IMG/VR virus record: IMGVR_UViG_3300033074_000580
Span: 159,270 to 223,269 of that record
DNA length: 64,000 bases
Reading direction: 5' to 3' (one strand)
DNA from: a virus
Taxonomy: Duplodnaviria; Heunggongvirae; Uroviricota; Caudoviricetes
The notes below the pieces were generated by a model. That model worked only from the letters and a program-made list of their open reading frames with translations, was not told the origin of the DNA and did no database searches. The position numbers and the translations under genes are program-made. Shown here one piece after another: positions 19,951 through 62,411 of the stretch. Each line of letters opens with the position of its first letter. Positions within the stretch are counted from its first letter, which is position 1.

Positions 19951-20285
19951 AGAAATTTTCTAATTTTATAGTACAACTTAAACAATCTTTTATATAACCA
20001 CTCAGGTTTCCTATAATAGAAACCCTTACTCTTTGTTTTTGGATAAGACCAATGATAACCAACCATTTGTTCAAATAGAAACTTTCTTAATCTGAATTTA
20101 ACTTCCTCCCAAAACGATAACATGTAGATATCACATGTTATTTTTTCATAATCACCTTCTATTTTAGTTTCAAACCAAAATAATGTGTTTCCCATTCTAC
20201 ACAAACCAGATAGATGAACATCGTAATGATTGGATATCCAAACAAAATCAATTTCATCATATGGTAATGTTGCTATTCGTTTCAT
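19947..20285 (-). CDS. hypothetical protein (112 aa)
   Basis: ORF track. Confidence 0.45.
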   Translation of the reverse strand: MKRIATLPYDEIDFVWISNHYDVHLSGLCRMGNTLFWFETKIEGDYEKITCDIYMLSFWEEVKFRLRKFLFEQMVGYHWSYPKTKSKGFYYRKPEWLYKRLFKLYYKIRKFL

Positions 20286-20872
20286 TTTAATAATTCATTT
20301 AAAACGTGTTTGGCAAATTTCTTATGTCCTGAAGATTTTAAATGAATACCATCATCAGAATCACTTCTGTCTACAGTATTATCCATAGGAATGATTCTAC
20401 ATCCAGTAATTCTTTCTTGAATTTTCTTTTGTAGTTTTATGTATCGATTTCTACAACGAGTGGTTGTTGCATCGTCATAAGTTGTTCTAACATTAACCTT
20501 CTCAGGGTTATAACCAACAATAACAATGACTTCCATCTCATATAGATTACCTAAGTCAACCATCGATTGAATGTTATTCAATGTTTCCGTTTCACTAGTC
20601 ATCGCAAATGAATCATTGATACCACCGTATATAATTAAAGTTGAATGAAATTCATTTTTCTTTAAGTAAGATTCCAATGTTGATAACATCCACTTAGTTC
20701 TTTTACCTCCTTTTGATATGTTATGAAACTTCATATCCATACCCTTAGCCACACTTGATTGCCATCCACCACTATAACAAGTTAAACTATCTCCCACAAA
20801 TAATATCCTTCTACCTGTCTCAGATTTAAAAGATACCATAGTTAAACATAAAAATAAAATTACTCCCCTCAT
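20282..20872 (-). CDS. SGNH/GDSL hydrolase
   Basis: 'ILFVGDSLT' block I with the catalytic Ser; signal-like N-terminus. Confidence 0.7.
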   Translation of the reverse strand: MRGVILFLCLTMVSFKSETGRRILFVGDSLTCYSGGWQSSVAKGMDMKFHNISKGGKRTKWMLSTLESYLKKNEFHSTLIIYGGINDSFAMTSETETLNNIQSMVDLGNLYEMEVIVIVGYNPEKVNVRTTYDDATTTRCRNRYIKLQKKIQERITGCRIIPMDNTVDRSDSDDGIHLKSSGHKKFAKHVLNELLK

Positions 20873-22802: not shown

Positions 22803-23381
22803 CTATATCAAAGTATCTCGTTTTCTTTGAATATAATTCATACCAATAGTACCATTTTGTAATCTTCGTTTACTATCTAATAAATCCAAATACTTTAAAT
22901 CACCCATGTTAAGAAACGATTTAACTTTTTCAACATCTTCTTTTTCTTCAAATAAGTTTTCGTATGTTGTTCTTAACGCATTGATATTCAACTCATCTAA
23001 TTTTTCTGATAATTTTCCAACCCAGTTTTCCATTCGATTGATTTCATCCTTATGTCTTTCAACCCAGTCGTTATTTAATTCATATGTTTTGTGATTTTTA
23101 TAATCACCAACTTTATTATCCGAATAAACCCAACTGATTGCAACATCTCTAAAATTCAATCGTTTATGAATTATCACCTTATCAAATTTAGATATGAAAT
23201 CATTATCAATTCTAAATAAAAACTCTTTAACCACAATGTTATCGTGGTCAATATAATCAAGAAGTTCTTCGTGATTCGGGGAAAACGGTTCGTGTAAATG
23301 AATATAGTTTAATTCACTTGAAATCCAAGTACTTAAAGAATATCCACCCGACCTTGGATATGTTATAATCAATATTCTCAT
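22803..23381 (-). CDS. sulfotransferase-family protein
   Basis: 'TYPRSGGYSLSTW' resembles the 5'-PSB PAPS-binding motif; 'FRDVAISWVY' resembles the 3'-PB motif. Confidence 0.55.
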   Translation of the reverse strand: MRILIITYPRSGGYSLSTWISSELNYIHLHEPFSPNHEELLDYIDHDNIVVKEFLFRIDNDFISKFDKVIIHKRLNFRDVAISWVYSDNKVGDYKNHKTYELNNDWVERHKDEINRMENWVGKLSEKLDELNINALRTTYENLFEEKEDVEKVKSFLNMGDLKYLDLLDSKRRLQNGTIGMNYIQRKRDTLI

Positions 23382-23664: not shown

Positions 23665-23913
23665 TTATAGCTTTTCTAACACTATTTTATTTAATTCACT
23701 ATCCCTCAGGGCTATGGTTTGACAAACCTCACCACTATTAGTTAATAGGGAAACTAAATAAACCCCGTTTTGACGTAATTTGATTTTAATTATTTCACCA
23801 CATATGAATCCCATTTCCATCAATCTTAATCGAATACAAGGTTTACATTTTAAACAATGTTCAGCTTCGGGAATATCGATAACTTTATATAATTCACCAA
23901 TTTCTAATTTCAT
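23665..23913 (-). CDS. FeoA-like (SH3-like) domain protein
   Basis: 'RLRLMEMGFICGEIIKIK...GEVCQTIALRDSELNKIVLE' matches the FeoA pattern. Confidence 0.5.
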   Translation of the reverse strand: MKLEIGELYKVIDIPEAEHCLKCKPCIRLRLMEMGFICGEIIKIKLRQNGVYLVSLLTNSGEVCQTIALRDSELNKIVLEKL

Positions 23914-24641
23914 TTATAATTTTTTAAATAATATTCTAAATCTTCTGGCGTCCCAAGTCCCCACATATCTTTTGATTCAATCATATAGTTGTATATTTGT
24001 AAACCATTACCGATTGCTTCGTTATAAACAGGACAAACATAAAATTCATTATTAACTCGGATGTTCTTATCAATCATTTGTTCTGCGGATTTAACAAAAT
24101 CCGAACCATGTTTCCAATAGTAAATTCCTGCAGTTGCCTTATTTGATATTGCTCTTTTTTCCGCAACCTCAGTTATTAGATTGGTGTTGCTGTTTACCCT
24201 TGCAAATGACCACTTCTCATCATATGCTTCGAAACACATTATTGCGCCATCATATTCTTTAACCGCACCCATGAAATCATTTGAGTCCCATATAATTAAC
24301 TGGTCTGAATTCATGATGATTAAAGGGTTATCATTATTGATTAGTTCTTTAGATGCCAACACACTACACGCAGCACCTTCAGTTAATCCATTAACTTCCA
24401 CAATTGAGAAGTTAGGAGTGAAAGATAAAATATCATCCAATGGATAATCGAGTCTATGTTCCTTTTGAACGATGTATATGAAATGAGCATCTATGTTCAT
24501 GGATTCAACAACCAATTTAACCATCGGTTTTCCATTAACATCAATCAATGGTTTTGGCAATTCGTATCCAACCTTTTGGAATCGACTACCCAATCCCGCC
24601 ATTGGGATTACAACATTTAATTTATTGTTTTTATATTTCAT
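23910..24641 (-). CDS. sugar-phosphate nucleotidyltransferase
   Basis: N-terminal 'VIPMAGLGSRF' NTP-transferase signature. Confidence 0.7.
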   Translation of the reverse strand: MKYKNNKLNVVIPMAGLGSRFQKVGYELPKPLIDVNGKPMVKLVVESMNIDAHFIYIVQKEHRLDYPLDDILSFTPNFSIVEVNGLTEGAACSVLASKELINNDNPLIIMNSDQLIIWDSNDFMGAVKEYDGAIMCFEAYDEKWSFARVNSNTNLITEVAEKRAISNKATAGIYYWKHGSDFVKSAEQMIDKNIRVNNEFYVCPVYNEAIGNGLQIYNYMIESKDMWGLGTPEDLEYYLKNYK

Positions 24642-30487: not shown

Positions 30488-30958
30488 TTATAAGTCTAAA
30501 ACTTTTAGTTGGTCAATTGTGTGTTTTGCACTAACATGATGAATACCGATTCCACCCGCATCTCTCCATCCTTGAATGTTGTCAATTCTATCGTCAATCA
30601 AAATTGATGTGGGGGTTGCAAAATCTTTCTTATGTTTAGCACTACGAAGTATTAAATGAACACCTGGTAATTCTTTGTTAATCCAGTCGTGTTTAGCCAC
30701 TCTCGATTCTGGTTGTCTTGATGGTGCGGATAATATTTCAGGATTATATTTTTTTATATAATTCCACAATCTTTTACCATCTGACATCCATTTTAAGTTT
30801 GCCCAAAAGTCATAACCCGCTTTGTTTATCGGGTCCCAAAAATTTTCGTCATTACGATGTGTACCATCAAGTTGGTGACCTGTTAATTCAAAGTAACCTT
30901 TATCAAAGTCGACAAGAACTCCGTCCATGTCACAATAGATTTTGTATTTTGTGTTCAT
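30488..30958 (-). CDS. 5'(3')-deoxyribonucleotidase (HAD, NT5C family)
   Basis: 'KIYCDMDGVLVDF' motif I. Confidence 0.75.
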   Translation of the reverse strand: MNTKYKIYCDMDGVLVDFDKGYFELTGHQLDGTHRNDENFWDPINKAGYDFWANLKWMSDGKRLWNYIKKYNPEILSAPSRQPESRVAKHDWINKELPGVHLILRSAKHKKDFATPTSILIDDRIDNIQGWRDAGGIGIHHVSAKHTIDQLKVLDL

Positions 30959-31003
30959 ATTTTAAATATAAGTAATTTTTTTCGTTTTAACAAAAAATGG
31001 GCA

Positions 31004-31033
31004 TAAAAAAACCCTCAAAATTGAGGGTTTTTG
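31004..31033. terminator. bidirectional terminator hairpin
   Basis: aaaaaaACCCTCAAaattTTGAGGGTttttt. Confidence 0.75.
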
Positions 31034-31050
31034 TTTATAATATATTGGTG

Positions 31051-31314
31051 TTACTCAGCTGCCATTCCTAATTCTTCGGAACCACTTTCCAAACCGGAAA
31101 TCTTACCACTCATATCCTTTCTTCCAAGGATATCTCCAGTTTTAGAGTTGATAACATAGATTACTCCATTCTCATCTTTCCCTAAAAAAATCTGTATTTT
31201 ATCGTCCTGAGGTTGTTCATCAAGTTCGTGTGTTTCCTCATCAACTTGTTCGTTAACGATATTGTTAACTATCTTTTCAATATCTTCTTGTTTTAATTTT
31301 ACTATTTTTGACAT
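31051..31314 (-). CDS. hypothetical acidic protein (87 aa)
   Basis: ORF track. Confidence 0.4.
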   Translation of the reverse strand: MSKIVKLKQEDIEKIVNNIVNEQVDEETHELDEQPQDDKIQIFLGKDENGVIYVINSKTGDILGRKDMSGKISGLESGSEELGMAAE

Positions 31315-31341
31315 GTCTTTTTTATATATAAATACTGATTA

Positions 31342-31440
31342 TTAGGTTTTTTTCTTATGAAGTCCCTTCTTTTGATTCATCTTACGGGTTTCTTTACCCA
31401 TTTTGATTCTATTCTTCTTCTTTTTTTCTGCTTTTGTCAT
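31342..31440 (-). CDS. Lys-rich micro-protein (32 aa)
   Basis: manually read: MTKAEKKKKNRIKMGKETRKMNQKKGLHKKKT. Confidence 0.25.
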   Translation of the reverse strand: MTKAEKKKKNRIKMGKETRKMNQKKGLHKKKT

Positions 31441-31464
31441 GTAAATAAATATAACAAAAGAATA

Positions 31465-31500
31465 GAAAAAACCCCGATGGGAATGTCCTAATCGGGGTTT
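31465..31500 (-). terminator. minus-strand terminator
   Basis: A-run on the plus strand, then CCCCGAT...ATCGGGG. Confidence 0.6.
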
Positions 31501-31508
31501 ATGAACTA

Positions 31509-32453
31509 CTAGTTAACTCCTTTAAATAATTGTGGGGTTTGACCGTAAACCGGTAACTTTCCGTCCCATTTTTCAATCCACAATTGTTGTAACAATAATG
31601 AATTCAAAGTAGATTGTTTCATTCTGTTTGCTTCAGACTCAGCCTTAGCGGTTGTTAACATCGCCTGAGCGTTACCTTCAGCGGTTGCCACTTTAATCTT
31701 AGCTTCAGCTTCAGCTTGTTTAACTTTATTCTCTGCCATCAAAGCAGCTTGAACCGCATTGTTCTTGGCGTTTATTGCGTTCTTAAATGATTCAGGATAT
31801 AATAGATTAGATGTAAATTGATTTACAACAAACCCTTCATGTAACAATTGACCTTCCAATAACTTACGAACTTCAATCTCAAATTGAGCTCGATTACTAA
31901 TCAATTCATCTGCGGTATATTTGTTTGTTGCTAATCTAAACGCGTCGAATACTGCGGTCTTTAAGAACCCTTCTTCAATCTGTTCTAAACTTCTACGATA
32001 CTTAGCAAAGATTTGTGGTACCTTTTCTCTTTGTACTGAGTAGTTGATGATTGGAGATACGTGGAACTCACTACCGTCTCTACTGTTTACGATGAATGAA
32101 TTGTCGCCAGTATATTCTTTGTGTTGAATAAATGTTGGGAATTCATAAATGTTGTGAGTGATTGGATTAAAGAATACCATACCAGTAACTTCAGTTACAT
32201 CACTTACACCTTTATTATCACCATATAAGTTTACCTTTACACCAACGTGTCCAGCATCAATTCTTTCACATGAAAAGAAAAGAAAAATAATTAGGAAAAA
32301 TCCCACCACACCTGTTACAATTGTTTTCATTGTTTTTTTAATTTTAATTGTTTGTTCGTTATTAAATTCTTCTTCCATTAGGTCCAATTCTTCCTCGGAC
32401 CTACGATTACCTCGATTATCCCATCGGTTATTGTATCTATCAAATTTCGCCAT
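31509..32453 (-). CDS. SPFH/band-7 (prohibitin-like) membrane protein
   Basis: N-terminal TM segment; prohibitin-like core and Ala/Glu-rich coiled-coil tail. Confidence 0.8.
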   Translation of the reverse strand: MAKFDRYNNRWDNRGNRRSEEELDLMEEEFNNEQTIKIKKTMKTIVTGVVGFFLIIFLFFSCERIDAGHVGVKVNLYGDNKGVSDVTEVTGMVFFNPITHNIYEFPTFIQHKEYTGDNSFIVNSRDGSEFHVSPIINYSVQREKVPQIFAKYRRSLEQIEEGFLKTAVFDAFRLATNKYTADELISNRAQFEIEVRKLLEGQLLHEGFVVNQFTSNLLYPESFKNAINAKNNAVQAALMAENKVKQAEAEAKIKVATAEGNAQAMLTTAKAESEANRMKQSTLNSLLLQQLWIEKWDGKLPVYGQTPQLFKGVN

Positions 32454-32796
32454 ATTGTTTTGTTTTAGTTGTTTTATACAAATTGTTAATTACTTTATGT
32501 GCCTCTGTCCATCTTAAAATTGGTCCCTTACCTGAAATATGGTACTTACTTAAAGGTGAAAACGGTGTGTGTGAAATATATTTACCATTTTTTGCTCTAT
32601 GAATCATTTTTTTTATATCCCCATCAACATTAAGAACCGGTCCCAGTATTTTATTATCAAATGGATTTTTTTCAAACGGTTCAAATTCATATAGATAATC
32701 AAACACAACATCATCTTTAATGTACCAACCATATGTTGCAATGGTAGAAACTTCTAAAATCAATAATAGAATTGTTAATACTAATAAAATTTCCAT
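32440..32796 (-). CDS. membrane-anchored hypothetical protein (118 aa)
   Basis: N-terminal hydrophobic segment. Confidence 0.45.
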   Translation of the reverse strand: MEILLVLTILLLILEVSTIATYGWYIKDDVVFDYLYEFEPFEKNPFDNKILGPVLNVDGDIKKMIHRAKNGKYISHTPFSPLSKYHISGKGPILRWTEAHKVINNLYKTTKTKQYGEI

Positions 32797-32797
32797 A

Positions 32798-33283
32798 TTA
32801 TTTTGTTAAAATAGGTGATGTGGTTGTTAATGGTGTTGGTGTAAATGTAACAACTGTCACATCACAATTTCTTAAATTACTTTTTATTGCAGATTCAATC
32901 GCACCCCAATCACCACCACCAATACCCGCACCAATCTTTGGTAGTCCAATATGTTTACCCGCAAATATTCTATTCATACTTTTTAAACACGATTTAAGTG
33001 CATTTAGTCTGAAATCCGGTCCTGGTCTATATTGTGTATAGGAATTAACAACAAACAATCTATATTTGGTATTATATTCCCAATCAATTTTACCCAACTT
33101 TTCTTTCATTCCTTCGAACCTTTTACTTTCAAGAAAGAATCTATCACAACCAAACGCTCTAGCCATTTGTGGTGCTAATCCTCCAGCCATTGCATTGAAA
33201 CAATTACAACCGTGTGTTATAACATCGAATTGTTTATTCTTTGCCAATTCAATTAAATCCCCTTCAATTATGTTATATTCCAT
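32798..33283 (-). CDS. macro-domain protein (ADP-ribose binding/processing)
   Basis: 'DVITHGCNCFNAMAGGLAPQMARAFG' and 'LPKIGAGIGGGDW' motifs. Confidence 0.8.
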   Translation of the reverse strand: MEYNIIEGDLIELAKNKQFDVITHGCNCFNAMAGGLAPQMARAFGCDRFFLESKRFEGMKEKLGKIDWEYNTKYRLFVVNSYTQYRPGPDFRLNALKSCLKSMNRIFAGKHIGLPKIGAGIGGGDWGAIESAIKSNLRNCDVTVVTFTPTPLTTTSPILTK

Positions 33284-33284
33284 A

Positions 33285-33665
33285 TTATTTTCTTTTTACT
33301 TTTGGATGAACTACATGTGGTTCTGGTTTCTTTTTAGTCGCTCTTTTCTTTTTAATCACCTCTTCTTTGGGTAGATAATCGAGTTCTGTTTCTCCCGGTG
33401 GAATTGGTTTTTCATCCTCTTCTGATAAAAAATCAAATAGATTTTTCCATTGAATAAAATGGAAAGCGAAAAGAATTGAGAATCCGCCGAGTAATAATGA
33501 AATAATGTTTAATATTGTATCTGAAGCGGTTAATCCTGGAAATACTATGAATTCAAAAATCAAAATAATTCCGAGTACAACCCCAACTACTGACAATATT
33601 TTTGGGTTAAATGTTTTTTTTAATGTTTCTTTCATGGTGTGAGTTTTAAGGATGGTTGGGTTCAA
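33285..33665 (-). CDS. membrane protein (126 aa)
   Basis: three hydrophobic segments; basic C-terminus. Confidence 0.5.
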   Translation of the reverse strand: MNPTILKTHTMKETLKKTFNPKILSVVGVVLGIILIFEFIVFPGLTASDTILNIISLLLGGFSILFAFHFIQWKNLFDFLSEEDEKPIPPGETELDYLPKEEVIKKKRATKKKPEPHVVHPKVKRK

Positions 33666-34702: not shown

Positions 34703-35356
34703 TTATCCAACAATTCCAACAATATCATCCATATGATGGTCATCAGTACCCAATTCAGAACCTATTTGATGTCTTTTGAGTGCTTTAATTACATCTTTTA
34801 AATCATATGGTGCAAATTCTAAACTACCATCCATACCAACATCCATACGACGACCATTACTAATCTTTTTATCGAAAGGTAAATGGCAATGTCCATGTAA
34901 ATGTATACGTCCTTTACGAAGTCCGTTCCAACTTGATATTGGGTAATGACACATCTCGATTGTTTCTCCTTGATATTCAAATTGGTCAAACCAACTCACA
35001 CTCATAAAAAGTTTTTTAACATCCCCTCTATTTCTATCAATGTGATGGTCATGATTACCCAGAATCAAATGTATGTTCTTACAAATCAATCTGTTATGGA
35101 ATTCTTCAATGTTTTCAAATCCACCAAAACTCCAATCACCTAAGTGAATTAGAATATCATCTTGTCCAACAACTTCGTTAATGTTATTAACAATTGCTGA
35201 ATTCATCTTTTCAATTGTCTCAAAAGGTCGTGTTTGTTTTTCAGGAATATCACCATTAGGTAATCTCCAATTAGTTACACCACGACATATATTTTTGTGG
35301 GCGTAATGAGTGTCAGATGTTATCCACACTCTTATATTATCATCTATCTTTATCAT
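34703..35356 (-). CDS. metallophosphoesterase (calcineurin-like)
   Basis: motifs 'SDTHYAH' (DxH), 'LGDWSFGG' (GD) and 'LGNHDHH' (GNHD). Confidence 0.75.
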   Translation of the reverse strand: MIKIDDNIRVWITSDTHYAHKNICRGVTNWRLPNGDIPEKQTRPFETIEKMNSAIVNNINEVVGQDDILIHLGDWSFGGFENIEEFHNRLICKNIHLILGNHDHHIDRNRGDVKKLFMSVSWFDQFEYQGETIEMCHYPISSWNGLRKGRIHLHGHCHLPFDKKISNGRRMDVGMDGSLEFAPYDLKDVIKALKRHQIGSELGTDDHHMDDIVGIVG

Positions 35357-37500
35357 ATCAATGTCTTTTTATTTGGTAATGGGGTAATTTCTTCGACTGG
35401 TTTATTTGACCAATCTCCCGAACCTTCCCACTCATATTCAAAACTAAAATCAACATTACTATTCATGTGAAATAGTTGTATTTCTAGTTGTTTAAATTCG
35501 GGGTCAGGTCTACCTTCTTCACCCCATCTTGGTTTTGCAATTTTTCTTGCTCTTGTCGATGCATTTAATTTAGTATATGAATAGTCTTCTAATCTAAATG
35601 GAATTCTTTCAACAGGGTCATATGCCGGTTGTGTAAATTTATGTTTACATTTATATGTCCACTTACCTTCATCATCTATCTTAAAATGATGGTCAGCCCA
35701 ATATGGTCCAGCATTTCTAGCACCAAATTCAATCATATCCAACTCCTCATCATATTTTAAATGAATCTCAAATCCACCCCTTGTTCTCCAAAATAATCTA
35801 AACAGAACAAACATTTCGTTAACTAAACTATCTGCGAAATTACTAATGTTAGGTTTAATGATATTGTAATCAAAACCAGTTTCATAATCAATCTCAATTA
35901 GTTTATCGGGATTGTCAAATGTTAGTGTGTAATGAAACTCAGGTAAGTTAGGTCTCCACGGTACACTAATCGGTTCTTCACTTTTCATATTTTGTAAGAA
36001 TATCGCAAATGATTTTACTCTATTCAAAACATGTATCTTAGATAATTTATAATCATCTCTCATCCAACTACCTAAGTAAAAGAATGGTGATATATTGAAA
36101 CGTTCAATGTTTTGTCCGGCAACCGTATTAACACCTAATCCAAAACCAAAACCAGCCGCAATTGTTAATATACTTGTGTTTCTATTTCTCCAAATGAAAC
36201 TCATCGTGTGTCCAAAGTCTTCATAGTCTTCAGTTGGGAAACCTACAATCCAGTTCGTCAATCCACCAACACCAACAACTTTACCCGATGCCAAGTTATC
36301 TTCCATTTCTTGAATGGTAACTCCTTTTAACATATCGTTAAGTACTTTCTGACTACCAGATTCACAACCATAACTCAACATCTCACAACCACCCGCCTTC
36401 AAGTCTTTATAATATTCTAAATCCATTCGACCATCATGTCTAGCATAACCCGTCCAATGTATCTTCATTCCCTTTGCAACAACACCTTTACAAAATGCTC
36501 TTAATTCATTTAAGTTACCATTAACTAAACTATCAATGAACCAAATAACATCGGTACCTTTGTTATAATATAACCATTCGATTTCCGTTATCGCATCAAC
36601 CGCCTGTCTTTGTCTATACTTCCAAAAATGTGTTTCTTCACAGAAAGAACATTTAGCAATACAACCTCTACTGAATTCTGTGTTAACTCCGTTTGGATAA
36701 ACATACTCATTAAAATCAAATGTTGAATAATCAGGTAATGGTAGATTATTTAAATTTAATCTTTGGTTTTCAGGTTGTGCCAAATATTGCATCGTTGGAT
36801 GAACCACACCCTTTTCTATTTCATTTAATATTTGTAACAAAATCATTTCACCTTCACCATTAACCGCATAATCAATTACACCTTGTGGATAATCATTAGG
36901 GTCTAAGAATTGATATTGTCTCAACGCAACGTGTGGTCCCCCTAATAATATTTTTATTGATGGTTTTAGTTTCTTTAACTCGGTCATCATCCACTTAACC
37001 GGTTGTTCATTACAATAATATAATGTAAACCCAACAACATCAGGGTCAAATGCCATAATATCTTTTAGGTACTCTTTAAATAATGGTTCCGTATGTTGGT
37101 GAATTTCTTCGTAGTAATGTGGTGGATTCCATTTCCATTCACGAGCACCATCAAAGGGGTCAAAGTCAATTTTATTTTCCAATAACCATTTACGAGATTC
37201 ATTATGTACTTTAACATTAAAATCGAAACACTTAGTATTATAACCGGCCTTTCTTGAAACGGCAGATAAACGAGCAATACTAAATGGCGGAAAGTTAGGT
37301 GACCACTCGGGCATTAACACAAGTGCTAATTTTGTATTTTTGGTACTCGGTATAATCTCAACGTCTGTGACGTTTTCTTGAACCTTAGCTTTTGCGAAAG
37401 GTGCAATGGCTCTCATCATGTCGAGGTGTTTATCCTCAGCATTGAAATCCATTGGTCTTGGTTTAGATTCTTCCTTTCTGTAATTGTAAAGTTCTGCCAT
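35353..37500 (-). CDS. B12-binding-domain radical SAM enzyme (715 aa)
   Basis: 'CIAKCSFC' CxxxCxxC motif after an N-terminal cobalamin-binding-like Rossmann region; long C-terminal extension. Confidence 0.8.
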   Translation of the reverse strand: MAELYNYRKEESKPRPMDFNAEDKHLDMMRAIAPFAKAKVQENVTDVEIIPSTKNTKLALVLMPEWSPNFPPFSIARLSAVSRKAGYNTKCFDFNVKVHNESRKWLLENKIDFDPFDGAREWKWNPPHYYEEIHQHTEPLFKEYLKDIMAFDPDVVGFTLYYCNEQPVKWMMTELKKLKPSIKILLGGPHVALRQYQFLDPNDYPQGVIDYAVNGEGEMILLQILNEIEKGVVHPTMQYLAQPENQRLNLNNLPLPDYSTFDFNEYVYPNGVNTEFSRGCIAKCSFCEETHFWKYRQRQAVDAITEIEWLYYNKGTDVIWFIDSLVNGNLNELRAFCKGVVAKGMKIHWTGYARHDGRMDLEYYKDLKAGGCEMLSYGCESGSQKVLNDMLKGVTIQEMEDNLASGKVVGVGGLTNWIVGFPTEDYEDFGHTMSFIWRNRNTSILTIAAGFGFGLGVNTVAGQNIERFNISPFFYLGSWMRDDYKLSKIHVLNRVKSFAIFLQNMKSEEPISVPWRPNLPEFHYTLTFDNPDKLIEIDYETGFDYNIIKPNISNFADSLVNEMFVLFRLFWRTRGGFEIHLKYDEELDMIEFGARNAGPYWADHHFKIDDEGKWTYKCKHKFTQPAYDPVERIPFRLEDYSYTKLNASTRARKIAKPRWGEEGRPDPEFKQLEIQLFHMNSNVDFSFEYEWEGSGDWSNKPVEEITPLPNKKTLI

Positions 37501-39623: not shown

Positions 39624-40091
39624 TTACATTTGGAACCATTCTGGATTAACTCTACCCTTCCATTTACAAAATTCTTTTTTATCACCCATATAATAATTTC
39701 TATATGATTGAATTGTATCTCCGTAAACCTTATATTCTTCAGGCATTGCAAGTGCTGGGGGTGTAAATTCCCTATCCTTAATATTTGGTCTATGATATGC
39801 ACACCATTCAATGATGTCTTGAGTTTTATGACGTTTTCCGTACCTATATGTGTACTCTTCACATAAATTGAATCCTAAGTCCACCAACCAAATGTAGTTC
39901 TGTAAATCCTCTCTAACCCATATAGAACACGGGTGATTCTTATGTGACAGTTTATATGGTGCTTCTCCACCTGTTGCCCAATGTGCTCCACAAAGTAATT
40001 GGGCAGTTTCTAATATCATTTTAACCACATGTTTGTCGTTATGATATTCCGCACATTTTTTAGGACTCCAATCTAAAAAGAAAATGTTCAT
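39624..40091 (-). CDS. possible pyrimidine-dimer DNA glycosylase (endonuclease V/DenV-like)
   Basis: weak N-terminal resemblance; start set to M15, which begins directly after the upstream stop. Confidence 0.35.
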   Translation of the reverse strand: MNIFFLDWSPKKCAEYHNDKHVVKMILETAQLLCGAHWATGGEAPYKLSHKNHPCSIWVREDLQNYIWLVDLGFNLCEEYTYRYGKRHKTQDIIEWCAYHRPNIKDREFTPPALAMPEEYKVYGDTIQSYRNYYMGDKKEFCKWKGRVNPEWFQM

Positions 40092-40092
40092 G

Positions 40093-40374
40093 TTATTTGT
40101 TTGTTTCGTAATATTGTTTTCTAACCTTGGCACCCAACTCCATGTCGTTTGGTGTATTCAATATATCTTCAGCTGATATTGTAACCAATGTGGTTCTGTT
40201 CTTCATGATTCGTTTAATTTCATCATCAGTAACGTAACCTTGATAATGGGATTTATTATAACAACCAATACAAAGTTGTCCCATCCCGTCAATATAACCT
40301 GTTCTAAAATCCACGTGTGTTGTTATTTCTTCGTGTGTTTCTTTACCACATAAGATACATGTTTCTTTTGGCAT
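40093..40374 (-). CDS. zinc-ribbon protein (93 aa)
   Basis: 'CILCGKE...CIGCYN'. Confidence 0.45.
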   Translation of the reverse strand: MPKETCILCGKETHEEITTHVDFRTGYIDGMGQLCIGCYNKSHYQGYVTDDEIKRIMKNRTTLVTISAEDILNTPNDMELGAKVRKQYYETNK

Positions 40375-42508: not shown

Positions 42509-42752
42509 AACTCCCTAATGTCTTAAAATATTTACTTTTACCTTTTCGTGCCAATTTAATTTCATCGTGAAGAGTTTTACCATCTTTTCTCAATTCCCTT
42601 TCAATTTCATTAAGTCTTTGCCACTTTCTTATCTCTCTTTGTTCTTCTTCTTTACCACCAAAAACATAATAATGGAGGAGTACACCTAATATACCAGGAG
42701 GTTCGGGTAAACAAAAACCTGCCAATATTATCAACAATATGAATGTCATCAT
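42489..42752 (-). CDS. membrane protein (87 aa)
   Basis: N-terminal TM segment. Confidence 0.4.
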   Translation of the reverse strand: MMTFILLIILAGFCLPEPPGILGVLLHYYVFGGKEEEQREIRKWQRLNEIERELRKDGKTLHDEIKLARKGKSKYFKTLGSYEETDL

Positions 42753-43342
42753 AATAAAAATTTTAAAATCTTATCTTTAATACCGCTTTGTTTAATCCCT
42801 TCAGAACTTAATGGTGTTTCAACAAAATTATCTAAACCCCATTCATGTTCATATGAAATGGAATAATCCAAACCAGTTTTACCCATTCTCAAATCATCAA
42901 TAGCAACCCAATGTGTTATTTCAGGATGGTCAACCAAGTATTGTTTAATCTCAATACTTCTTGTTTGTTCCAATTCCCATTCACGAGACCAAACAAATCC
43001 TGCAGGATATGCTCCGATGTACCAAGTACATTGACCCAAGTTTGGTGTAAAGTCTATTGGTTTCTTTTTGAGACCTTGTGATTCATAATACTCACCCATC
43101 TCCTCAACAGTTGCCCATCTTTTCCAATCAGATGAGACAACAATTTCAGCATTAGTTTCTTCCAAGATTTCATTCAAAACTTTGATTGCCTTTTTATTGA
43201 AGTTATCAAAACGGGACATCACGGGTAACGATGCTACCGATTGTGATAATTTCCTACCTGCTTCTCTTTGTTTCTTAAACCGACCACCCCATTCGGTTGA
43301 TAAACATATCACACCATCGTGGTCTAAAAATATTACTTTCAT
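42749..43342 (-). CDS. HAD-superfamily phosphatase
   Basis: 'VIFLDHDGVI' motif I. Confidence 0.65.
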   Translation of the reverse strand: MKVIFLDHDGVICLSTEWGGRFKKQREAGRKLSQSVASLPVMSRFDNFNKKAIKVLNEILEETNAEIVVSSDWKRWATVEEMGEYYESQGLKKKPIDFTPNLGQCTWYIGAYPAGFVWSREWELEQTRSIEIKQYLVDHPEITHWVAIDDLRMGKTGLDYSISYEHEWGLDNFVETPLSSEGIKQSGIKDKILKFLL

Positions 43343-44365: not shown

Positions 44366-45076
44366 TTACTCATTTTCTTCAGTCATTCGACATCTGTTAC
44401 ATTGTTTGTCACATCTATCTCCACCATCATCTTCAACAGAACAATAAAACGGTTTGTCATTATTCATACAACTTGATAATATTTCTAAACATAACTGTTC
44501 AGGAATTTTACTTCTTTCATATGCGTTACTTCTGCCTTGTGTTCCCGTTTTAGAACCTCTTGGTGCTGCAACATGACAAGGGTCACCATTCTTACACATT
44601 GGACGAGGAACCCACATATTGCTATTGGTCCATATGTCAGTTGGTTTCATTCGTTCATCACCATATTGACAATATGTTACTGTGTGTCGTTTAAAGTCTG
44701 CCATGAATGGCATTTTACGAAGTACTCCTCTTGGATTTTCCATGAACCAATATCTTGGATTAAAATGTTCTATTATTTCTATTGTTTTCTTAACTAACTC
44801 GATACCTAATCTTGCGCCATCTGTTTTAGGAATGTAAGCACCTTTACCTCCAGTCCAATGGTGTCCTAATGATGCAACACTAAAACTTGTACATGGGGGT
44901 GATGCCCAAATAACATCTGGTTTAAACGGTACTTTCTTTACATCAAAATCCAATATACTAATTGGATAATGAATCCCTTCAAATTCAACCAAGTCAGATG
45001 AAAAAACTTCCATCCCTAAACTTTCGGAAATTTTACCAACCGAGCGACTGCCCGCAAACAATTCCAATACCTTCAT
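44366..45076 (-). CDS. DNA (cytosine-5) methyltransferase
   Basis: motif I 'LELFAGSRSVG', motif IV 'SPPCTSFS' and 'ENPRG'. Confidence 0.8.
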   Translation of the reverse strand: MKVLELFAGSRSVGKISESLGMEVFSSDLVEFEGIHYPISILDFDVKKVPFKPDVIWASPPCTSFSVASLGHHWTGGKGAYIPKTDGARLGIELVKKTIEIIEHFNPRYWFMENPRGVLRKMPFMADFKRHTVTYCQYGDERMKPTDIWTNSNMWVPRPMCKNGDPCHVAAPRGSKTGTQGRSNAYERSKIPEQLCLEILSSCMNNDKPFYCSVEDDGGDRCDKQCNRCRMTEENE

Positions 45077-47910: not shown

Positions 47911-48888
47911 TTATTTTTTCTGAGATTTCAAAATTTGTTTATTATTTAAGAAACTATAGATGTGACCAGTCACTGGAATACACCATCCGTTACCAATCAT
48001 CTTGATTCTTTTGGTTGCGGTCACACCTTCAACGTTAGTATATCCCGCTTTAAGTCCTTGAAGTACTTCCGCTTCCATAATGGTTAATTGTTTAATCTCA
48101 CCAGATTCTGTCTCATAAAATCCTGTGCCAAATGATTCACCCTTTCTATTTGTTGAACCAAGTTGTGTAACTAAACAATTTGATTTACCATCAATTCGAG
48201 TTGTTTTCGGATAAAAATATTTTCCATCTTTACCTTTACGACCTCTAAAACCAACACCATTCTTTGCACCATTAACAATATTACCAATTGTTATTCCTCT
48301 ATCTTCAGGTACTTGTACTCCTTCAATATCTGTCCAAAATAAACGAATACGACTTTGTCCCCAAACACGAGCTGCGTCAAATACAATTGGTTTAACACCT
48401 AACGCGTCACTAATAACATTCTCCCACTTCTTTGTCATCTTAACGTTTTCTAACAAGAAATTAAGAACTGGTAAACCTCTTTCAATTTGTAGGTCGCGAA
48501 TACCACGATATAACCTAACGAATTCCCAAAACAAATATGATTGACCTTCGAATTCAAATCCTTCAGATACCAATTGTTCATAATGTTCTAAAGTTAAAAT
48601 GTCAATCTCAGTTGTGGTTGAGAAACCTTTTTTCTTACCCATAAATGATAGACATTGACATGGTGAACCTCCATCAATAACGGTTACATCTAAAAAATCT
48701 TCGGGTTTAAGATTACGAACATCACCAACTTGAATAGTATCGGGAAAATTTGCGTTCAATACTTTGATTGAAGACTCTTCCACTTCACTACTGTAATGTT
48801 TAACAACATTTAATCCAGCATACTCAGCAGATAATCTTGACCCGCCATAACCAGCAAATAGAGATAAAAATACGTGTTCTTTTTTCAT
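47911..48888 (-). CDS. DNA (cytosine-5) methyltransferase
   Basis: 'LSLFAGYGGS', 'GGSPCQCLSF' and 'LLENVK'. Confidence 0.85.
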   Translation of the reverse strand: MKKEHVFLSLFAGYGGSRLSAEYAGLNVVKHYSSEVEESSIKVLNANFPDTIQVGDVRNLKPEDFLDVTVIDGGSPCQCLSFMGKKKGFSTTTEIDILTLEHYEQLVSEGFEFEGQSYLFWEFVRLYRGIRDLQIERGLPVLNFLLENVKMTKKWENVISDALGVKPIVFDAARVWGQSRIRLFWTDIEGVQVPEDRGITIGNIVNGAKNGVGFRGRKGKDGKYFYPKTTRIDGKSNCLVTQLGSTNRKGESFGTGFYETESGEIKQLTIMEAEVLQGLKAGYTNVEGVTATKRIKMIGNGWCIPVTGHIYSFLNNKQILKSQKK

Positions 48889-52966: not shown

Positions 52967-54013
52967 CTAATTTGATAAAGGTGCTTTAATTGTTGGGTGT
53001 GATTCATAATTTACTAATGTAAAATCCTCTAATTTATACATCGGTAAGGAATCACCTTCCAATCTTTTAACATTTTCTTCTATTTTCAATAATGGTAGAT
53101 TCTTAAAAGGTTCTCTACTAATTTGTTCTTTTGCCTGTTCAATATGGTTTGAGTATAAATGAACGTCTCCCAAATTACCAATCAACTCATCTGGAACCAT
53201 ACCCACCTCTTTGGATATAATTTCCAATAATAAACCATATGATGCGATATTAAATGGTAAACCTAAAAATGTATCCACACTTCTTTGATTCCACATTAAA
53301 GAGATTGCTCGTTTTGGGACCGGATATAATTTATCAATTTCTTCATGGTCTACTTTGTGGAAATCAAACGGCTCAAATAAATTACCATAAGTTTTTGATG
53401 CTAAATCTAATCTTTCTTCAATATTTAACTCTCTAGTATAAACTTGAAATCCATAATGACAAGGTGGTAAAACCATTTGGTCTAACTCACCTACATTCCA
53501 AGCCGATACCATTAACCTTCTACTATCAGGATTTGTTTTAAGTTCGTTAATTAAGTTTTGGATTTGGTCTGTTCCCCAAGTGTGATTTGGTTTAGTCCAA
53601 TCTCTCCATTGCTTACCATAGATTGGTCCTAATTCACCCCATTTTTCTGCAAACTCATCATCGGTTTTGATTTTATCAACAAATAGTTCTTTGGTTAGTT
53701 GACTTTCATTACCAAACCATTCGGTCATTTTCTTTTGGTAATTCTTATAAGCATCCCCATCCCAAATGTGACAACCATTATCAATCAGATATTTTATATT
53801 TGTGTCTCCACGTAAAAACCATAACAATTCAATTACCATTGTTTTCCACGCCATCTTTTTAGTTGTAAGTAATGGGAAACCTTGGGACATCTTATGACGA
53901 ATTTGACGACCGAATACTGATATAGTACCAGTTCCCGTTCTATCGGTTTTAACAATCCCATTATCGATGATATCTTGTAATAGTTCTTGATATTTGATGT
54001 CTAATGTATTCAT
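52967..54013 (-). CDS. thyA: thymidylate synthase (ThyA family) carrying a ~40-aa insertion
   Basis: 'DRTGTGTISVFG', 'PPCH', 'FLGLPFNIASY' and 'GDVHLYSNH' conserved blocks. Confidence 0.9.
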   Translation of the reverse strand: MNTLDIKYQELLQDIIDNGIVKTDRTGTGTISVFGRQIRHKMSQGFPLLTTKKMAWKTMVIELLWFLRGDTNIKYLIDNGCHIWDGDAYKNYQKKMTEWFGNESQLTKELFVDKIKTDDEFAEKWGELGPIYGKQWRDWTKPNHTWGTDQIQNLINELKTNPDSRRLMVSAWNVGELDQMVLPPCHYGFQVYTRELNIEERLDLASKTYGNLFEPFDFHKVDHEEIDKLYPVPKRAISLMWNQRSVDTFLGLPFNIASYGLLLEIISKEVGMVPDELIGNLGDVHLYSNHIEQAKEQISREPFKNLPLLKIEENVKRLEGDSLPMYKLEDFTLVNYESHPTIKAPLSN

Positions 54014-54639
54014 ATTAAATTTTTTCTTTCTGATTTTGTTTGTATAATTTTCATTATGTCTTCTGCCAATTGCTTTTGACCCTTTTCCGAAAAATGACCA
54101 TCAACCAATTCAAAATTCGTTTCATCACCTATTGTGTGATAACCACCAAAAGGATAACAATTTAATTTAGTGGTAAACGGTGTCCAATGAATTATGGTAT
54201 TGTGGGTGTTTGTTAGGTTAATATAATCAATCCAATAATTTACCTCATTTAAAAACTTATCAGACATTCTATTAACAAACATTTCTTCTACCGTTCTTTC
54301 TGAAATGTCCAAATCATCTAATACGTTTTTAAAATTTGGCACCATTGTAATCCATTCCCCACTTTTGGTTACAACTCTAAACCTTTCAATTGACGACCAA
54401 TTTATTAGTACTATATCATCACTTTTTATTTCTGAATAATGTTTAAAGAATGATTCCAAAATTGAGTAGTTATCATTTCCACCAACACCATAATTTATGA
54501 GGTCACATCCTAATTTCTCCGATATAATTTCTGAAAATATTTTAGGTTTATAACCTTTCCACTTCACATAAGAAGTTGACCATATGGCATACTCATTGTA
54601 ACCTTCACTAAAACTATCTCCGAATGTAAACAACTTCAT
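54010..54639 (-). CDS. SGNH/GDSL-like hydrolase
   Basis: 'LFTFGDSFSEG'. Confidence 0.6.
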   Translation of the reverse strand: MKLFTFGDSFSEGYNEYAIWSTSYVKWKGYKPKIFSEIISEKLGCDLINYGVGGNDNYSILESFFKHYSEIKSDDIVLINWSSIERFRVVTKSGEWITMVPNFKNVLDDLDISERTVEEMFVNRMSDKFLNEVNYWIDYINLTNTHNTIIHWTPFTTKLNCYPFGGYHTIGDETNFELVDGHFSEKGQKQLAEDIMKIIQTKSERKNLI

Positions 54640-57609: not shown

Positions 57610-58348
57610 TTTCATTAAATTGGTATTCAATACTGTAATCTTCATTCCTTATCTTATTTAAAAAAACATCGTAAAGGGTGTCGTGAAATTTTTTCGATGG
57701 GTGAGCCAAATCTCTTGCAAGTTTATCATACCTATCAGGAAAATAACCCAAATGATAATAGTTACATCCTATTTTATTTGCTAAATTTTTAATTGAATTA
57801 ACATATGTGATATACAATAAATTAAGTTGTTCATTGTCAATTAAGTACTTAGAATATAATTCTTCATGTTCTTTATCATGTATACTTATTATTCTTGGTT
57901 TTCCATCAATAAAAAATTCATACCTCGGTAGTATCGGTGCGAAATGAAAAATATTTTTAATTTTCAATTCTTCATGAAAACCATATAATATTCTAAATTG
58001 ACTCATAATACTTGACCCACCTAATGATAGGTTCCAAAATTTTCCACCGATAGTCTGATTTAATTTATACGCCCACGTATCTTCGAGATGTAATCCAATA
58101 CCCATAGTGAAACTACAACCCAAATAAACATTACCTTCTTCATTTATATTAAAATCATCCGCCGTTCTGAATCCATTATTATTGAATTGATATTCGATTG
58201 GATTATTCAAATAATAATTTAAAGTTTCATTAGACGGGTCATTTTTGAGGTTATCATAAAATCTTTCCTTCGTATCCATGGGACACCAAAGTAATGTTTT
58301 ATTTTTAGGGTAAAAACTATATTTGTATTTATTGTTCATCCTCAACAA
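57602..58348 (-). CDS. hypothetical protein (248 aa)
   Basis: ORF track. Confidence 0.5.
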   Translation of the reverse strand: MLRMNNKYKYSFYPKNKTLLWCPMDTKERFYDNLKNDPSNETLNYYLNNPIEYQFNNNGFRTADDFNINEEGNVYLGCSFTMGIGLHLEDTWAYKLNQTIGGKFWNLSLGGSSIMSQFRILYGFHEELKIKNIFHFAPILPRYEFFIDGKPRIISIHDKEHEELYSKYLIDNEQLNLLYITYVNSIKNLANKIGCNYYHLGYFPDRYDKLARDLAHPSKKFHDTLYDVFLNKIRNEDYSIEYQFNETI

Positions 58349-59328: not shown

Positions 59329-59526
59329 ATGAAAATAGAGAAGAAGCTAACGAGTGTTCATATATTGGACGACGTTTATAAGAAATTCAAGGTTAATGCC
59401 ATTGATGGTACAATTAACTTACAAAAATTAGTTAACAGGTCATTAGACTTGTATAATAAAGACGAATCTTTTAGAGAAAAGATAGATAATCACACTGGTT
59501 TAGCTGTGAGTGGTTCAAAGTATTGA
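59329..59526 (+). CDS. hypothetical protein (65 aa)
   Basis: ORF track. Confidence 0.4.
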   Translation: MKIEKKLTSVHILDDVYKKFKVNAIDGTINLQKLVNRSLDLYNKDESFREKIDNHTGLAVSGSKY

Positions 59527-59530
59527 TTTA

Positions 59531-62145: not shown

Positions 62146-62147
62146 AG

Positions 62148-62411
62148 ATGGCTAAGTCAAGAAAAAAGAAAATTGAAACTCCTGAGGTTGAATTTGACCT
62201 TAATGTTCCTGAAATTGAATATTATACTCCGTGTGAGTGGATGATTCAATTTGACGATGATGAACCTCAATTGTTTGCACAATCAGACGATAATTCAACC
62301 AATCATGAAGTTGTAATTAAATTACAAAACACAAACCAATCGTTTATAACTTTTACCAATAGTGAAAATGGTAAGACTTTTAAAATGTGGGCAAGACCCA
62401 AACAAAAATGA
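62148..62411 (+). CDS. hypothetical protein (87 aa), tandem paralog
   Basis: 'QFDDDEP' block shared with the next gene. Confidence 0.4.
   Translation: MAKSRKKKIETPEVEFDLNVPEIEYYTPCEWMIQFDDDEPQLFAQSDDNSTNHEVVIKLQNTNQSFITFTNSENGKTFKMWARPKQK

Follow-up and report, generated by a model that had tools for sequence, protein, structure and literature searches.

Two experimentally studied phage proteins are among the closest described relatives of the macrodomain protein analyzed here. T4 Tk.4, also named AdfM (anti-DarT factor Macrodomain), was characterized in one preprint by genetic evidence only; its knock-out sensitizes T4 to DarTG2, and the proposed substrate is the thymidine-linked ADP-ribose made by DarT2 on DNA (bioRxiv 10.1101/2025.11.20.689424). 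Vibrio phage Gary Adpp (KNV71_gp137) is the phosphatase that acts on ADPR-1''-phosphate in NARP1-AP, an operon for rebuilding NAD+; biochemical and genetic evidence showed that it counters the RES NADase aRES, its substrate being the ADPR-1''-phosphate released by RES-type NADases, and an H24A mutant is listed in Table S4 of that work (bioRxiv 10.64898/2026.01.28.702374). The two proteins are 35% identical to each other. PhiKZ gp104, likewise called ‘AdfM’, is a stand-alone phage macrodomain that removes DarT2-made ADP-ribose from DNA (PMC13309987). In SCO6735, a further macrodomain protein, Gln85 is essential for ADPr removal from thymidine (PMC9411070).

The locus compared with these systems lies in a 64-kb window, the whole stretch of DNA analyzed, which shows phage character in its ~32% GC content, long single-strand gene runs and family matches to phages only. 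Its source is a large uncultured phage, probably with a Bacteroidota host. The original prediction had described an anti-defence neighbourhood in which a deoxyribonucleotidase (NT5C), an SPFH protein, a macrodomain protein and a small membrane protein lie within 3 kb. All four genes were recovered from the ORF listing on the minus strand with matching coordinates, accompanied by further ORFs at 31051-31314 (87 aa) and 32440-32796 (118 aa) and by two intrinsic terminators. The family matches of NT5C, SPFH and the macrodomain are significant, and chance is excluded. The macrodomain stood up as a counter-defence candidate, while the combined system of three genes did not. We favor, with moderate confidence, the reading that this 3-kb stretch is no single system but a mosaic of independent accessory genes, in which a mobile counter-defence macrodomain gene of the Tk.4/Adpp family was inserted into a pair formed by a small transmembrane (TM) gene and the SPFH gene. 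For synteny, we used an SPFH-centered sample (the best 80 of 380 matching IMG/VR contigs) and a macrodomain-centered sample (the best 80 matches, with 69 distinct macrodomain sequences), both partly redundant, counting genes within 10 kb as nearby.

The SPFH gene (31509..32453, minus strand) encodes a 314-aa prohibitin-like SPFH/Band-7 membrane protein that matched Pfam Band_7 (PF01145, 3e-20, 73 bits versus a cut-off of 23.6) and phrog_200 (7e-66), with prohibitin 1/2 as its top PDB sequence matches (prohibitin-2, 3e-7). It resembles phage phrog_200 SPFH proteins, bacterial HflK/C and prohibitins in its architecture of a membrane anchor at the N terminus, a Band_7 domain and a coiled-coil region at the C-terminal end; the N terminus has a charged extension plus a single TM segment that ends in FFSC, with hydrophobic residues at ~44-61. 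Such SPFH/prohibitin-like proteins are common across large phages, among them Staphylococcus, crAss-like and Lak phages. Homologs of this one occur in 798 cultured phage records, and identity reaches 68-84% in the best 80 of 380 matching IMG/VR contigs. Its conserved upstream partner is TM126 (33285..33635, minus strand), a small two-TM protein with a Lys-rich, low-complexity C-terminal tail. The ORF extends to 33665, and the match to the start of the homolog in the related locus L001 indicates that translation probably begins at the ATG at 33635 (MKETLKK...). In 62 of the best 80 of 380 SPFH-centered loci, a TM126 homolog directly adjoins SPFH or runs into its start (39 at E<1e-10; median gap, -11.5 nt). 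In contrast to bacterial SPFH proteins, the partner is thus a two-TM protein with a Lys-rich tail and not NfeD-type; an SPFH-NfeD operon was rejected on this ground and because TM126, the 118-aa protein (g118) and the 87-aa protein (g87) had no Pfam match. The ancestral conserved element would be TM126 translationally coupled to a prohibitin-like SPFH scaffold and closed by a strong terminator. Upstream, outside the 3-kb stretch, a calcineurin-like metallophosphoesterase of 217 aa (34703..35356, minus strand; Pfam Metallophos 9e-9, phrog_547 2e-43) is a syntenic neighbor, and 30 of the best 80 of 380 loci have it no farther than 10 kb from SPFH.

An intrinsic terminator directly follows the SPFH stop codon (31465..31500, minus strand; hairpin and U6, -18.6 kcal/mol, z = -4.8, 0/200 shuffles folding as well). 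A second one (31005..31032, minus strand) lies 3' of the 87-aa gene and 5' of NT5C and combines a 10-bp GC-containing hairpin with U7 (-14.6 kcal/mol, z = -5.6 versus shuffles). The acidic g87 (31051..31314, minus strand) matched no family in Pfam or PHROG profiles and is kept downstream of SPFH in 10 of the best 80 of 380 loci; lying between the two terminators, its gene is apparently monocistronic. Because both strong terminators intervene, SPFH and NT5C belong to different transcription units, and the region is divided into three. NT5C (30488..30958, minus strand) is the first gene of its own unit and encodes a 156-aa 5'(3')-deoxyribonucleotidase of the HAD superfamily (Pfam PF06941, 29.7 bits versus a cut-off of 24.8; phrog_2643 ‘5'-3' deoxyribonucleotidase’, 2e-30), with HAD motif I DMDGVL (D10-x-D12) and motif IV LIDDR (D121-D122) both in the translation. 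Homologs occur in 55 cultured phage genomes, chiefly from large aquatic and soil phages. NT5C appears to be a nucleotide-pool enzyme of the auxiliary kind that large phages typically carry.

The macrodomain gene (32798..33283, minus strand) encodes a predicted stand-alone hydrolase of 161 aa. Its Pfam Macro score of 19.2 bits is under the cut-off of 22, and it matched phrog_335 (9e-46) and the PADLOC DarG model (7e-8). Searches of the PDB with a family profile retrieved BT1257 (6e-17), TARG1 (1e-9) and SCO6735 (2e-9), and the AlphaFold (AF2) model (pLDDT 90.4) had TARG1, DarG, Poa1p and BT1257 as top Foldseek matches (probability 1.0, TM 0.65-0.74). Despite the sub-threshold Pfam score, profile and predicted structure thus assign the protein to the ALC1-like (TARG1/DarG/Poa1p/SCO6735) class. 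The original prediction had considered MacroD, DarG-like and PARG-like clades; the MacroD and PARG types were rejected, as neither was among the sequence matches and the top Foldseek ranks were all ALC1-like, viral MacroD-like macrodomains appearing at lower ranks only. Residues H24, G25, N27, Q84, P115, I117, G118 and G123 are invariant in 44 homologs. The catalytic residues are therefore in place, the predicted active site comprising His24, Asn27, Gln84 and the Gly-rich loop P115-W126, and Q84 aligns with the Gln of the BT1257 ‘MIGQ’ motif, equivalent to SCO6735 Gln85. By its sequence, the protein looks like an active hydrolase. A role as a DarG antitoxin was rejected on the basis of the 161-aa length, the NCBIfam DarG score (25.2 bits versus a cut-off of 250) and the replacement of Lys80 by Gln; nor does the protein have a C-terminal DarT-binding domain or an adjacent darT, its neighbors being TM126 and g118. 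The gene is under purifying selection, as are the SPFH-adjacent copies (dN/dS 0.07-0.35 overall and 0.13-0.35 for SPFH-adjacent macrodomains, rough values because dS is near saturation).

Within phages, the protein shares 34% identity with T4 Tk.4 over 154 aa (E 2e-27, full-length; both in phrog_335 and both in the tblastn family), 31% with Gary Adpp (E 7e-17, full length) and 35% with the NARP1-associated macrodomain of Acinetobacter phage phiAbaA1 (2e-29). It is a new member of the recently characterized phage Tk.4(AdfM)/Adpp counter-defence family. This bears out the part of the original prediction that saw a possible counter-defence enzyme in the macrodomain protein, whose class is DarG/TARG1-like.

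Between the macrodomain and SPFH genes lies g118 (32440..32796, minus strand), which shares 14 nt with the start of SPFH. Its product of 118 aa carries a TM helix at the N terminus and a DYLYEFEPFEKNPFD motif that is invariant. Its AF2 model is poor (pLDDT 52), and only 10 homologs were found among 5.8 billion proteins. In relatives, g118 sits between Namat-like and Adps-like genes, overlapping the Adps start, as in loci L175, L176 and L182. The macrodomain and g118 genes form an 845-nt insertion that splits the TM126-SPFH pair, with the direction of the event being what we infer. The cassette would have entered between TM126 and SPFH and become orphaned from Adps and Namat; in relatives both of its genes are members of NARP1-type clusters for NAD+ reconstitution (Namat - g118 - Adps ... 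macrodomain). Macrodomain junctions differ among loci, with one type shared by the window and L178, another in L001 and another in L088. Distances of the neighboring genes conflict (window versus L088, SPFH dN 0.075 and macrodomain dN 0.201; window versus L001, SPFH dN 0.161 and macrodomain dN 0.117), which points to cassette exchange. In L088, the macrodomain gene runs at its end into the start of SPFH, which would allow the two to be co-translated, and a functional link between them is likewise possible.

The macrodomain-centered loci revealed partners other than those originally proposed. Among the best 80, an Adps-like gene lay upstream in 43, a Namat-like gene downstream in 41 and both in 39, and 36 of the 69 distinct close viral homologs were NARP1-linked. 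The sister locus L087, with a 91% identical macrodomain, has the order Namat - g118 - Adps - 275 - 99 - macrodomain. Phmmer queries with Adps-like and Namat-like proteins matched none of the ORFs in the 64-kb window, and Nudix, NMNAT, ART and NADAR domains were absent among the ~50 window ORFs scanned with Pfam. Given that both Adps and Namat are missing from the window, its macrodomain gene is an orphan copy. SPFH was nearby in 12 and NT5C in two of the best 80 macrodomain-centered loci, with SPFH on either side of the macrodomain at scattered distances (1.5 to 10 kb). Conversely, the best 80 of 380 SPFH-centered loci had NT5C nearby in 11 cases and a macrodomain in one.

Acting on either homolog’s substrate, the macrodomain would cleave a substituent from C1'' of ADP-ribose. 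By analogy with the stand-alone T4 enzyme, we tentatively put forward NARP1-independent reversal of phage-DNA ADP-ribosylation as the likeliest payoff here, because the 64 kb hold no Adps or Namat and yet SPFH-adjacent copies remain under purifying selection; the protein has probably also kept ADPR-1''-P phosphatase activity. Against a DNA substrate, the 91%-identical relative in a NARP1 context favors ADPR-1''-P. As the window covers just a portion of the genome, Adps and Namat could sit outside it, and the protein could work as a classical Adpp, converting aRES-made ADPR-1''-phosphate to ADPR that feeds these two enzymes to rebuild NAD+. We regard this as rather unlikely, though it is consistent with the full-length identity to the biochemically characterized Gary Adpp with His24 kept, with the Namat - g118 - Adps cluster of the sister copy, with the NARP1 linkage of about half of the distinct close homologs and with a neighbor, g118, that is a NARP1-cluster gene in relatives. 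Where relatives have a NARP1 cluster, however, it lies within ~8 kb of SPFH or the macrodomain, and 64 kb of the present phage contain neither gene. Several diverged SPFH-adjacent macrodomains also lack NARP1 in the sequence at hand while remaining under selection, and no NARP1 lies close to the stand-alone homologs of T4-like, rV5-like and Mooglevirus phages.

A role in RNA or housekeeping chemistry appears highly improbable. Here, the protein would perform Poa1p-like clean-up of ADPR-1''-P or Appr>p after Tpt1/KptA-type RNA repair, or would act on O-acetyl-ADP-ribose or in protein de-MARylation reversing a phage-encoded ADP-ribosyltransferase. Poa1p ranks with the top matches by structure and by sequence, the historical annotation is ‘A1pp phosphatase’, the window encodes an RNA-repair-type HAD_SAK_2 protein besides the metallophosphoesterase, and such roles were proposed in a jumbo-phage survey (PMC7824862). 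However, the ~50 window ORFs scanned yielded no domain of the Tpt1/KptA, RNA ligase or ART type, both experimentally studied homologs work in counter-defence, and the conserved partners of the family are NARP1 genes, not RNA-repair genes. The least probable reading, and a very unlikely one, is a single anti-defence or nucleotide-takeover apparatus, for instance one in which SPFH organizes the other two at the membrane, the macrodomain freeing ADP-ribose species and the nucleotidase breaking down nucleotide signals. That the three genes share one strand within 3 kb, in the same order in the closest relatives L001 and L088, speaks for it, and an accessory region common to them is suggested by the SPFH-macrodomain proximity in the macrodomain-centered sample and by a crAss-like phage whose SPFH gene adjoins NARP1-like genes. 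The two terminators, which create three transcription units, argue otherwise, as do the scattered SPFH-macrodomain spacing and the loss of linkage outside one narrow clade. NT5C-family enzymes act on dNMPs and not on cyclic or ADPR-derived signals, a further point against this reading. The defence association suggested for SPFH and NT5C also found no backing, as neither matched any PADLOC defence model and the literature searched contained no function, defence role or anti-defence role for phage SPFH proteins.

Among known systems, the orphan macrodomain shares several features with T4 Tk.4. Both are stand-alone proteins of ~155-160 aa that are not beside NARP1 genes, share the motifs HGCNCF, (Y)TQ at the catalytic position and P-x-IGAGIG-x-G-x-W and have an identical PDB match spectrum. 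T4, however, is of a different lineage with an Enterobacteria host, and an NJ tree placed Tk.4, with weak support, outside the environmental clade holding the window protein; as deep nodes of the macrodomain tree have bootstrap values <20, orthology to Tk.4 or Adpp is not claimed. With Gary Adpp, the protein shares the macrodomain family and the conserved His24, whereas the Adps - Adpp - Namat operon is absent from the 64-kb window, where the gene instead lies between a two-TM gene and SPFH. As in the SCO6735/BT1257 subclass, Gln occupies the position of DarG Lys80 and TARG1 Lys84, and the equivalent of DarG Asn22 is kept; unlike in SCO6735, the ‘mobile loop’ after this Gln is shorter and Lys34 is absent (PMC9411070). 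PhiKZ gp104 gave no detectable BLASTP similarity to the window protein (E 13) and is of a DarG2-like subtype with catalytic Lys78 (PMC13309987) in place of Gln84. It is AdfM by name but of a different subfamily, and would be a functional analogue if the window macrodomain acts on DNA.

The locus lies within a minus-strand gene run spanning ~15.4–59 kb of the window. The window has a GC content of 32%, and a tRNA scan of the 64 kb detected zero tRNAs. Protein-family matches were to phage families only, with the best protein matches coming from Cellulophaga, Flavobacterium, crAss-like and Lak phages. At the DNA level, cultured phages matched only in 60–120-nt pieces within crAss-like SPFH genes; the window is, therefore, without a close cultured relative. 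The original prediction had combined an NT5C nucleotidase, an SPFH protein and a macro domain into an anti-defence toolkit. All four open reading frames (ORFs) that it named were present at the coordinates proposed, on the minus strand: NT5C (30488–30958), SPFH (31509–32453), the macro gene (32798–33283) and a small membrane protein gene, TM126 (proposed as 33285–33665), most likely starting with the ATG at 33635 and then spanning 33285–33635. Two further minus-strand ORFs had been missed, an 87-aa gene (31051–31314) and the 118-aa g118 (32440–32796). PADLOC returned a weak DarG match for the macro gene alone and none for SPFH or NT5C.

To place the locus in context, we matched SPFH to 380 IMG/VR contigs, took the best 80 (68–84% identity, contigs up to 310 kb) and queried ±10 kb around each SPFH gene with every window protein from 27.8 to 39.6 kb. 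Like the macro sample described below, this set comprises the best 80 matches per query and is partly redundant. A TM126-like gene adjoined or overlapped the SPFH start in 62 of these 80 loci (median gap −11.5 nt), 39 of them with a match at E<1e-10, as compared to the presence of macro in 1/80 and of NT5C in 11/80, which identifies the TM126–SPFH pair as the conserved feature of the locus. The 87-aa gene and a metallophosphoesterase gene occurred in ten and 30 of the 80 loci, respectively. TM126, a small protein with two transmembrane (TM) segments and a Lys-rich tail, thus forms with SPFH a conserved membrane module that is probably translationally coupled. Such tightly coupled pairs of a small TM protein and a prohibitin-like SPFH protein occur in hundreds of large uncultured phages. 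The SPFH protein itself is a clear Band_7/phrog_200 member with prohibitins as the nearest solved structures. An SPFH–NfeD-type pair was excluded, as a Pfam scan of the neighbouring genes gave no NfeD match in any of them. A literature search on phage SPFH function returned nothing specific and no work that assigns it a role. Residues 1–45 form a charged N-terminal extension before the TM segment that is conserved in part of the clade, and many relatives align only from residue ~28–42 onward. Within the protein, Met42 and the hydrophobic stretch after it, which ends in FFSC, look similar to a lipoprotein signal, in agreement with the PHROG label ‘lipoprotein’.

The transcriptional layout separates the genes of the proposed toolkit. 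TM126, macro, g118 and SPFH follow one another with no gaps in between, and 14 nt are common to g118 and the SPFH start, so these four genes are probably carried on one common transcript. Directly 3′ of the SPFH stop lies a hairpin followed by U6 (31465–31500, −18.6 kcal/mol, z = −4.8), and a second hairpin with U7 is located 3′ of the 87-aa gene (31005–31032, −14.6 kcal/mol, z = −5.6). The 87-aa gene is thereby isolated between two terminators, and NT5C opens another unit. A sigma-70 promoter scan gave 30 hits, no different from the 27.9 in shuffled sequences, with a consensus that may not suit a Bacteroidota-type host. We also noted a putative, very Lys-rich 32-codon ORF (31342–31440, minus strand; MTKAEKKKKNRIKMGKETRKMNQKKGLHKKKT) in the stretch that separates the SPFH terminator from the 87-aa gene. 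With two terminators in between, the low macro and NT5C counts among SPFH loci and NT5C within 10 kb of macro in only two of 80 macro loci, the three-gene toolkit did not hold up, while its macro component stood as a plausible counter-defence enzyme. We conclude that the neighbourhood does not represent a new system but, taken by itself, an unremarkable mosaic of accessory phage genes.

Other parts of this mosaic were likewise assessed. The NT5C protein scored above the Pfam NT5C cut-off, also matched phrog_2643 and had zero matches in a PDB sequence search; as a nucleotide-pool enzyme, it is an auxiliary gene typical of large phages from aquatic and soil habitats. A function as thymine-excluding dTMPase was dropped in view of a ThyA of ordinary appearance encoded in the window (phrog_160, 6e-113), which at 348 aa exceeds the length of the profile match. 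Accessory functions abound in the rest of the window: genes at 39624–40133, 42749–43342, 44366–45076, 47911–48888, 58329–59012, 52967–54013, 20282–20872, 54010–54639, 22803–23381, 23910–24641 and 59510–63593 encode a DenV-like pyrimidine-dimer glycosylase, a HAD_SAK_2 protein, three DNA methyltransferases, ThyA, two GDSL lipases, a sulfotransferase, a sugar nucleotidyltransferase and three glycosyltransferases. In addition, a 715-aa B12-binding radical-SAM protein (35353–37500) shows weak similarity to PhpK/ApyD/BchE methyltransferases and cyclases, and its gene and the start of the metallophosphoesterase gene overlap. None of 84 related loci has a homolog, which gives it the look of an insertion specific to the window, placed between a 167-aa gene and the phosphoesterase.

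The macro ORF scored below the Pfam Macro cut-off (19.2 versus 22 bits) and was identified by phrog_335 (9e-46) and by a 44-sequence family profile matching BT1257 (6e-17). Its AlphaFold model (pLDDT 90.4) retrieved TARG1, DarG, Poa1p and BT1257 as best Foldseek hits, placing it in the ALC1-like class and thereby providing the class assignment that the original prediction had left to structure or profile analysis. Family-invariant residues include His24, Gly25, Asn27, Gln84 and the loop P115-x-I-G...G123. The catalytic residues, whose absence would have spoken against the original prediction, are thus kept (His24, Asn27, Gln84 and the Gly-rich loop). Asn27 corresponds to DarG Asn22 and PhiKZ AdfM Asn23, and Gln84 falls, in the alignment, on the Gln of the BT1257 sequence ‘MIGQ’. 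Gln84 was also equated with SCO6735 Gln85 through a tag offset that was checked by Val25 and Lys34. SCO6735 Gln85 takes the place of DarG Lys80 and TARG1 Lys84, and ADP-ribose cannot be removed from DNA thymidine without it (PMC9411070). A reading of the gene as DarG was rejected: the protein lacks a C-terminal domain, darT is not a neighbour, and the score reached 25 bits against a 250-bit cut-off. Judged by its residues, the macro protein appears to be a catalytically intact member of the family containing T4 Tk.4 and Vibrio phage Gary Adpp and is, as such, a new member of a known counter-defence family.

In phage Gary, ADPR-1′′-phosphate, which the RES-domain NADase aRES produces, is turned by Adpp into ADPR, from which Adps and Namat, the NARP1 pair, rebuild NAD+; an Adpp H24A mutant is included in the construct list of that preprint (bioRxiv 10.64898/2026.01.28.702374). 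We surveyed the neighbours of the macro family. A single macro sequence as query gave no match, and an alignment-based scan yielded the 80 IMG/VR loci with the closest homologs (40–55% identity). An Adps-like PRPS-family gene was located 0–2.8 kb upstream of macro in 43 of these loci, often abutting it, a NAMPT-like (Namat-like) gene was downstream in 41 and both were present in 39, invariably on the same strand. SPFH lay within 10 kb in 12 loci, on either side and at scattered distances. The Adps-like query shares 33% identity with Gary Adps in the N-terminal part of the latter and matches PDB PRPP synthetases. In a bootstrapped neighbour-joining tree, the window macro groups with that of the related locus L087 (100%), then L001 (100%) and then L088 and L091 (100%). 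This group falls within an environmental clade (76–79% support) with 69 distinct IMG/VR members, of which 36 show NARP1 linkage; T4 Tk.4, phiAbaA1 and Gary lie outside this clade, with deep nodes unresolved.

The second inserted gene leads to the same neighbourhood. L087 has a macro with 91% identity to that of the window and the gene order Namat (C terminus), g118, Adps, 275, 99 and macro; in L175, L176 and L182, g118 is likewise flanked by Namat and Adps. The gene (L087:262–615, L175:10001–10354, L182:1809–2135) encodes an N-terminal TM helix and an invariant motif, DYLYEFEPFEKNPFD, and in the relatives overlaps the Adps start. A search of 5.8 billion proteins gave only ten homologs, and its AF2 model, at pLDDT 52, was too poor to use. 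In this phage group, g118 is an uncharacterized accessory component of NARP1 clusters, and the L087 order together with the recurrent Namat–g118–Adps arrangement suggests that both cassette genes, macro and g118, originated in a NARP1 neighbourhood. As a side observation, the human-gut crAss-like phage cr126_1 (L094; MT774391.1, 36133–42876) carries NAMPT-like, 141-aa, PRPS-like, 64-aa TM and SPFH genes in this order, that is, an apparent NARP1 pair directly upstream of a small-TM and SPFH pair; its 141-aa protein is found again in L175, L176 and L182, where it comes right after Adps.

In the window, 845 nt holding macro and g118 break the TM126–SPFH pair. L178 has the same gene order, and L088 and L090 contain TM112, macro and SPFH without g118. 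In L001, a 57-aa Lys-rich ORF equivalent to the TM126 tail (L001:759–932) lies upstream of macro and the 109-aa TM part (L001:1431–1760) downstream, followed by an 88-aa gene and SPFH; TM126 thus appears split, as if scarred by a rearrangement around the inserted macro. L177 and L183 resemble the window but lack macro and NARP1, have g118 placed elsewhere and carry a ferredoxin gene between SPFH and NT5C. Among the closest relatives, the insertion site is unstable. Distances are also incongruent, with dN values of 0.075 for SPFH and 0.201 for macro between the window and L088 and of 0.161 and 0.117 between the window and L001, which fits cassette exchange. The nearest protein to the window macro in the database search was 91% identical and none was identical. 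Several diverged SPFH-adjacent macros have dN/dS values of 0.13–0.35, indicating purifying selection, with dS near saturation.

The window encodes no Adps, Namat or other NARP-cluster proteins; a Pfam scan of ~50 window ORFs found no Nudix, NMNAT, ART or NADAR proteins, and no homolog of the anti-aRES inhibitor aRad1 was detected (best E 0.34). In T4, knockout of tk.4 makes the phage sensitive to DarTG2, hence the name AdfM, for anti-DarT factor Macrodomain (bioRxiv 10.1101/2025.11.20.689424). As NARP1 is absent from the entire 64 kb, which cover part of the genome, and lies within ~8 kb in those relatives that have it, we tentatively rank first a NARP1-independent, T4-type role, in which the window macro would strip DarT2-type ADP-ribose from phage DNA. 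Ranked next, and rather unlikely, is a classical Adpp acting with a NARP1 pair encoded elsewhere in the genome. These two roles are not exclusive. In both known substrates, DarT2-type ADP-ribose and ADPR-1′′-phosphate, the leaving group is attached to the distal ribose at C1′′, and, by analogy with the known promiscuity of TARG1 and SCO6735 (PMC9411070), a broad 1′′-ADP-ribosyl hydrolase activity is chemically plausible. That the whole Tk.4/Adpp family acts as such a 1′′-ADP-ribosyl-X hydrolase, with one enzyme countering both DarT2 DNA ADP-ribosylation and RES-type NAD+ phosphorolysis, we consider an unlikely, speculative extension. If true, dual use would have left its evolutionary trace in orphan copies such as the window macro, kept under purifying selection after parting from Adps and Namat. 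As a weaker addition, the recurrent placement of macro beside the TM126–SPFH membrane pair may reflect a functional tie.

Among known systems, for which key functional data come from preprints, the window macro is related over its full length to T4 Tk.4 (L085:6923–7390; 34% identity, 2e-27) and to Gary Adpp (31%, 7e-17), and it matches the NARP1-associated macro of Acinetobacter phage phiAbaA1 (35%, 2e-29). T4 Tk.4 and Gary Adpp, the latter taken from Table S1 of the preprint, are 35% identical to each other (E 2e-23) and form one family with two separately assigned functions; neither preprint mentions the activity of the other protein. PhiKZ gp104 (L184:12518–13006), also named AdfM and biochemically demonstrated to clean DarT2-modified DNA (PMC13309987), differs as a separate DarG2-like subfamily without similarity to the window macro (BLASTP E 13) and with a match of only 23 aa to T4 Tk.4. 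The name ‘AdfM’, therefore, covers two macro subfamilies, with Lys at the catalytic position in one and Gln in the other. The window macro links two 2025–2026 preprints that gave one protein family different counter-defence functions, anti-DarT2 and anti-RES activities that were reported separately and hitherto unconnected. As an orphan, selectively kept macro without NARP1, it provides a natural test case for bifunctionality of the Tk.4/Adpp family.
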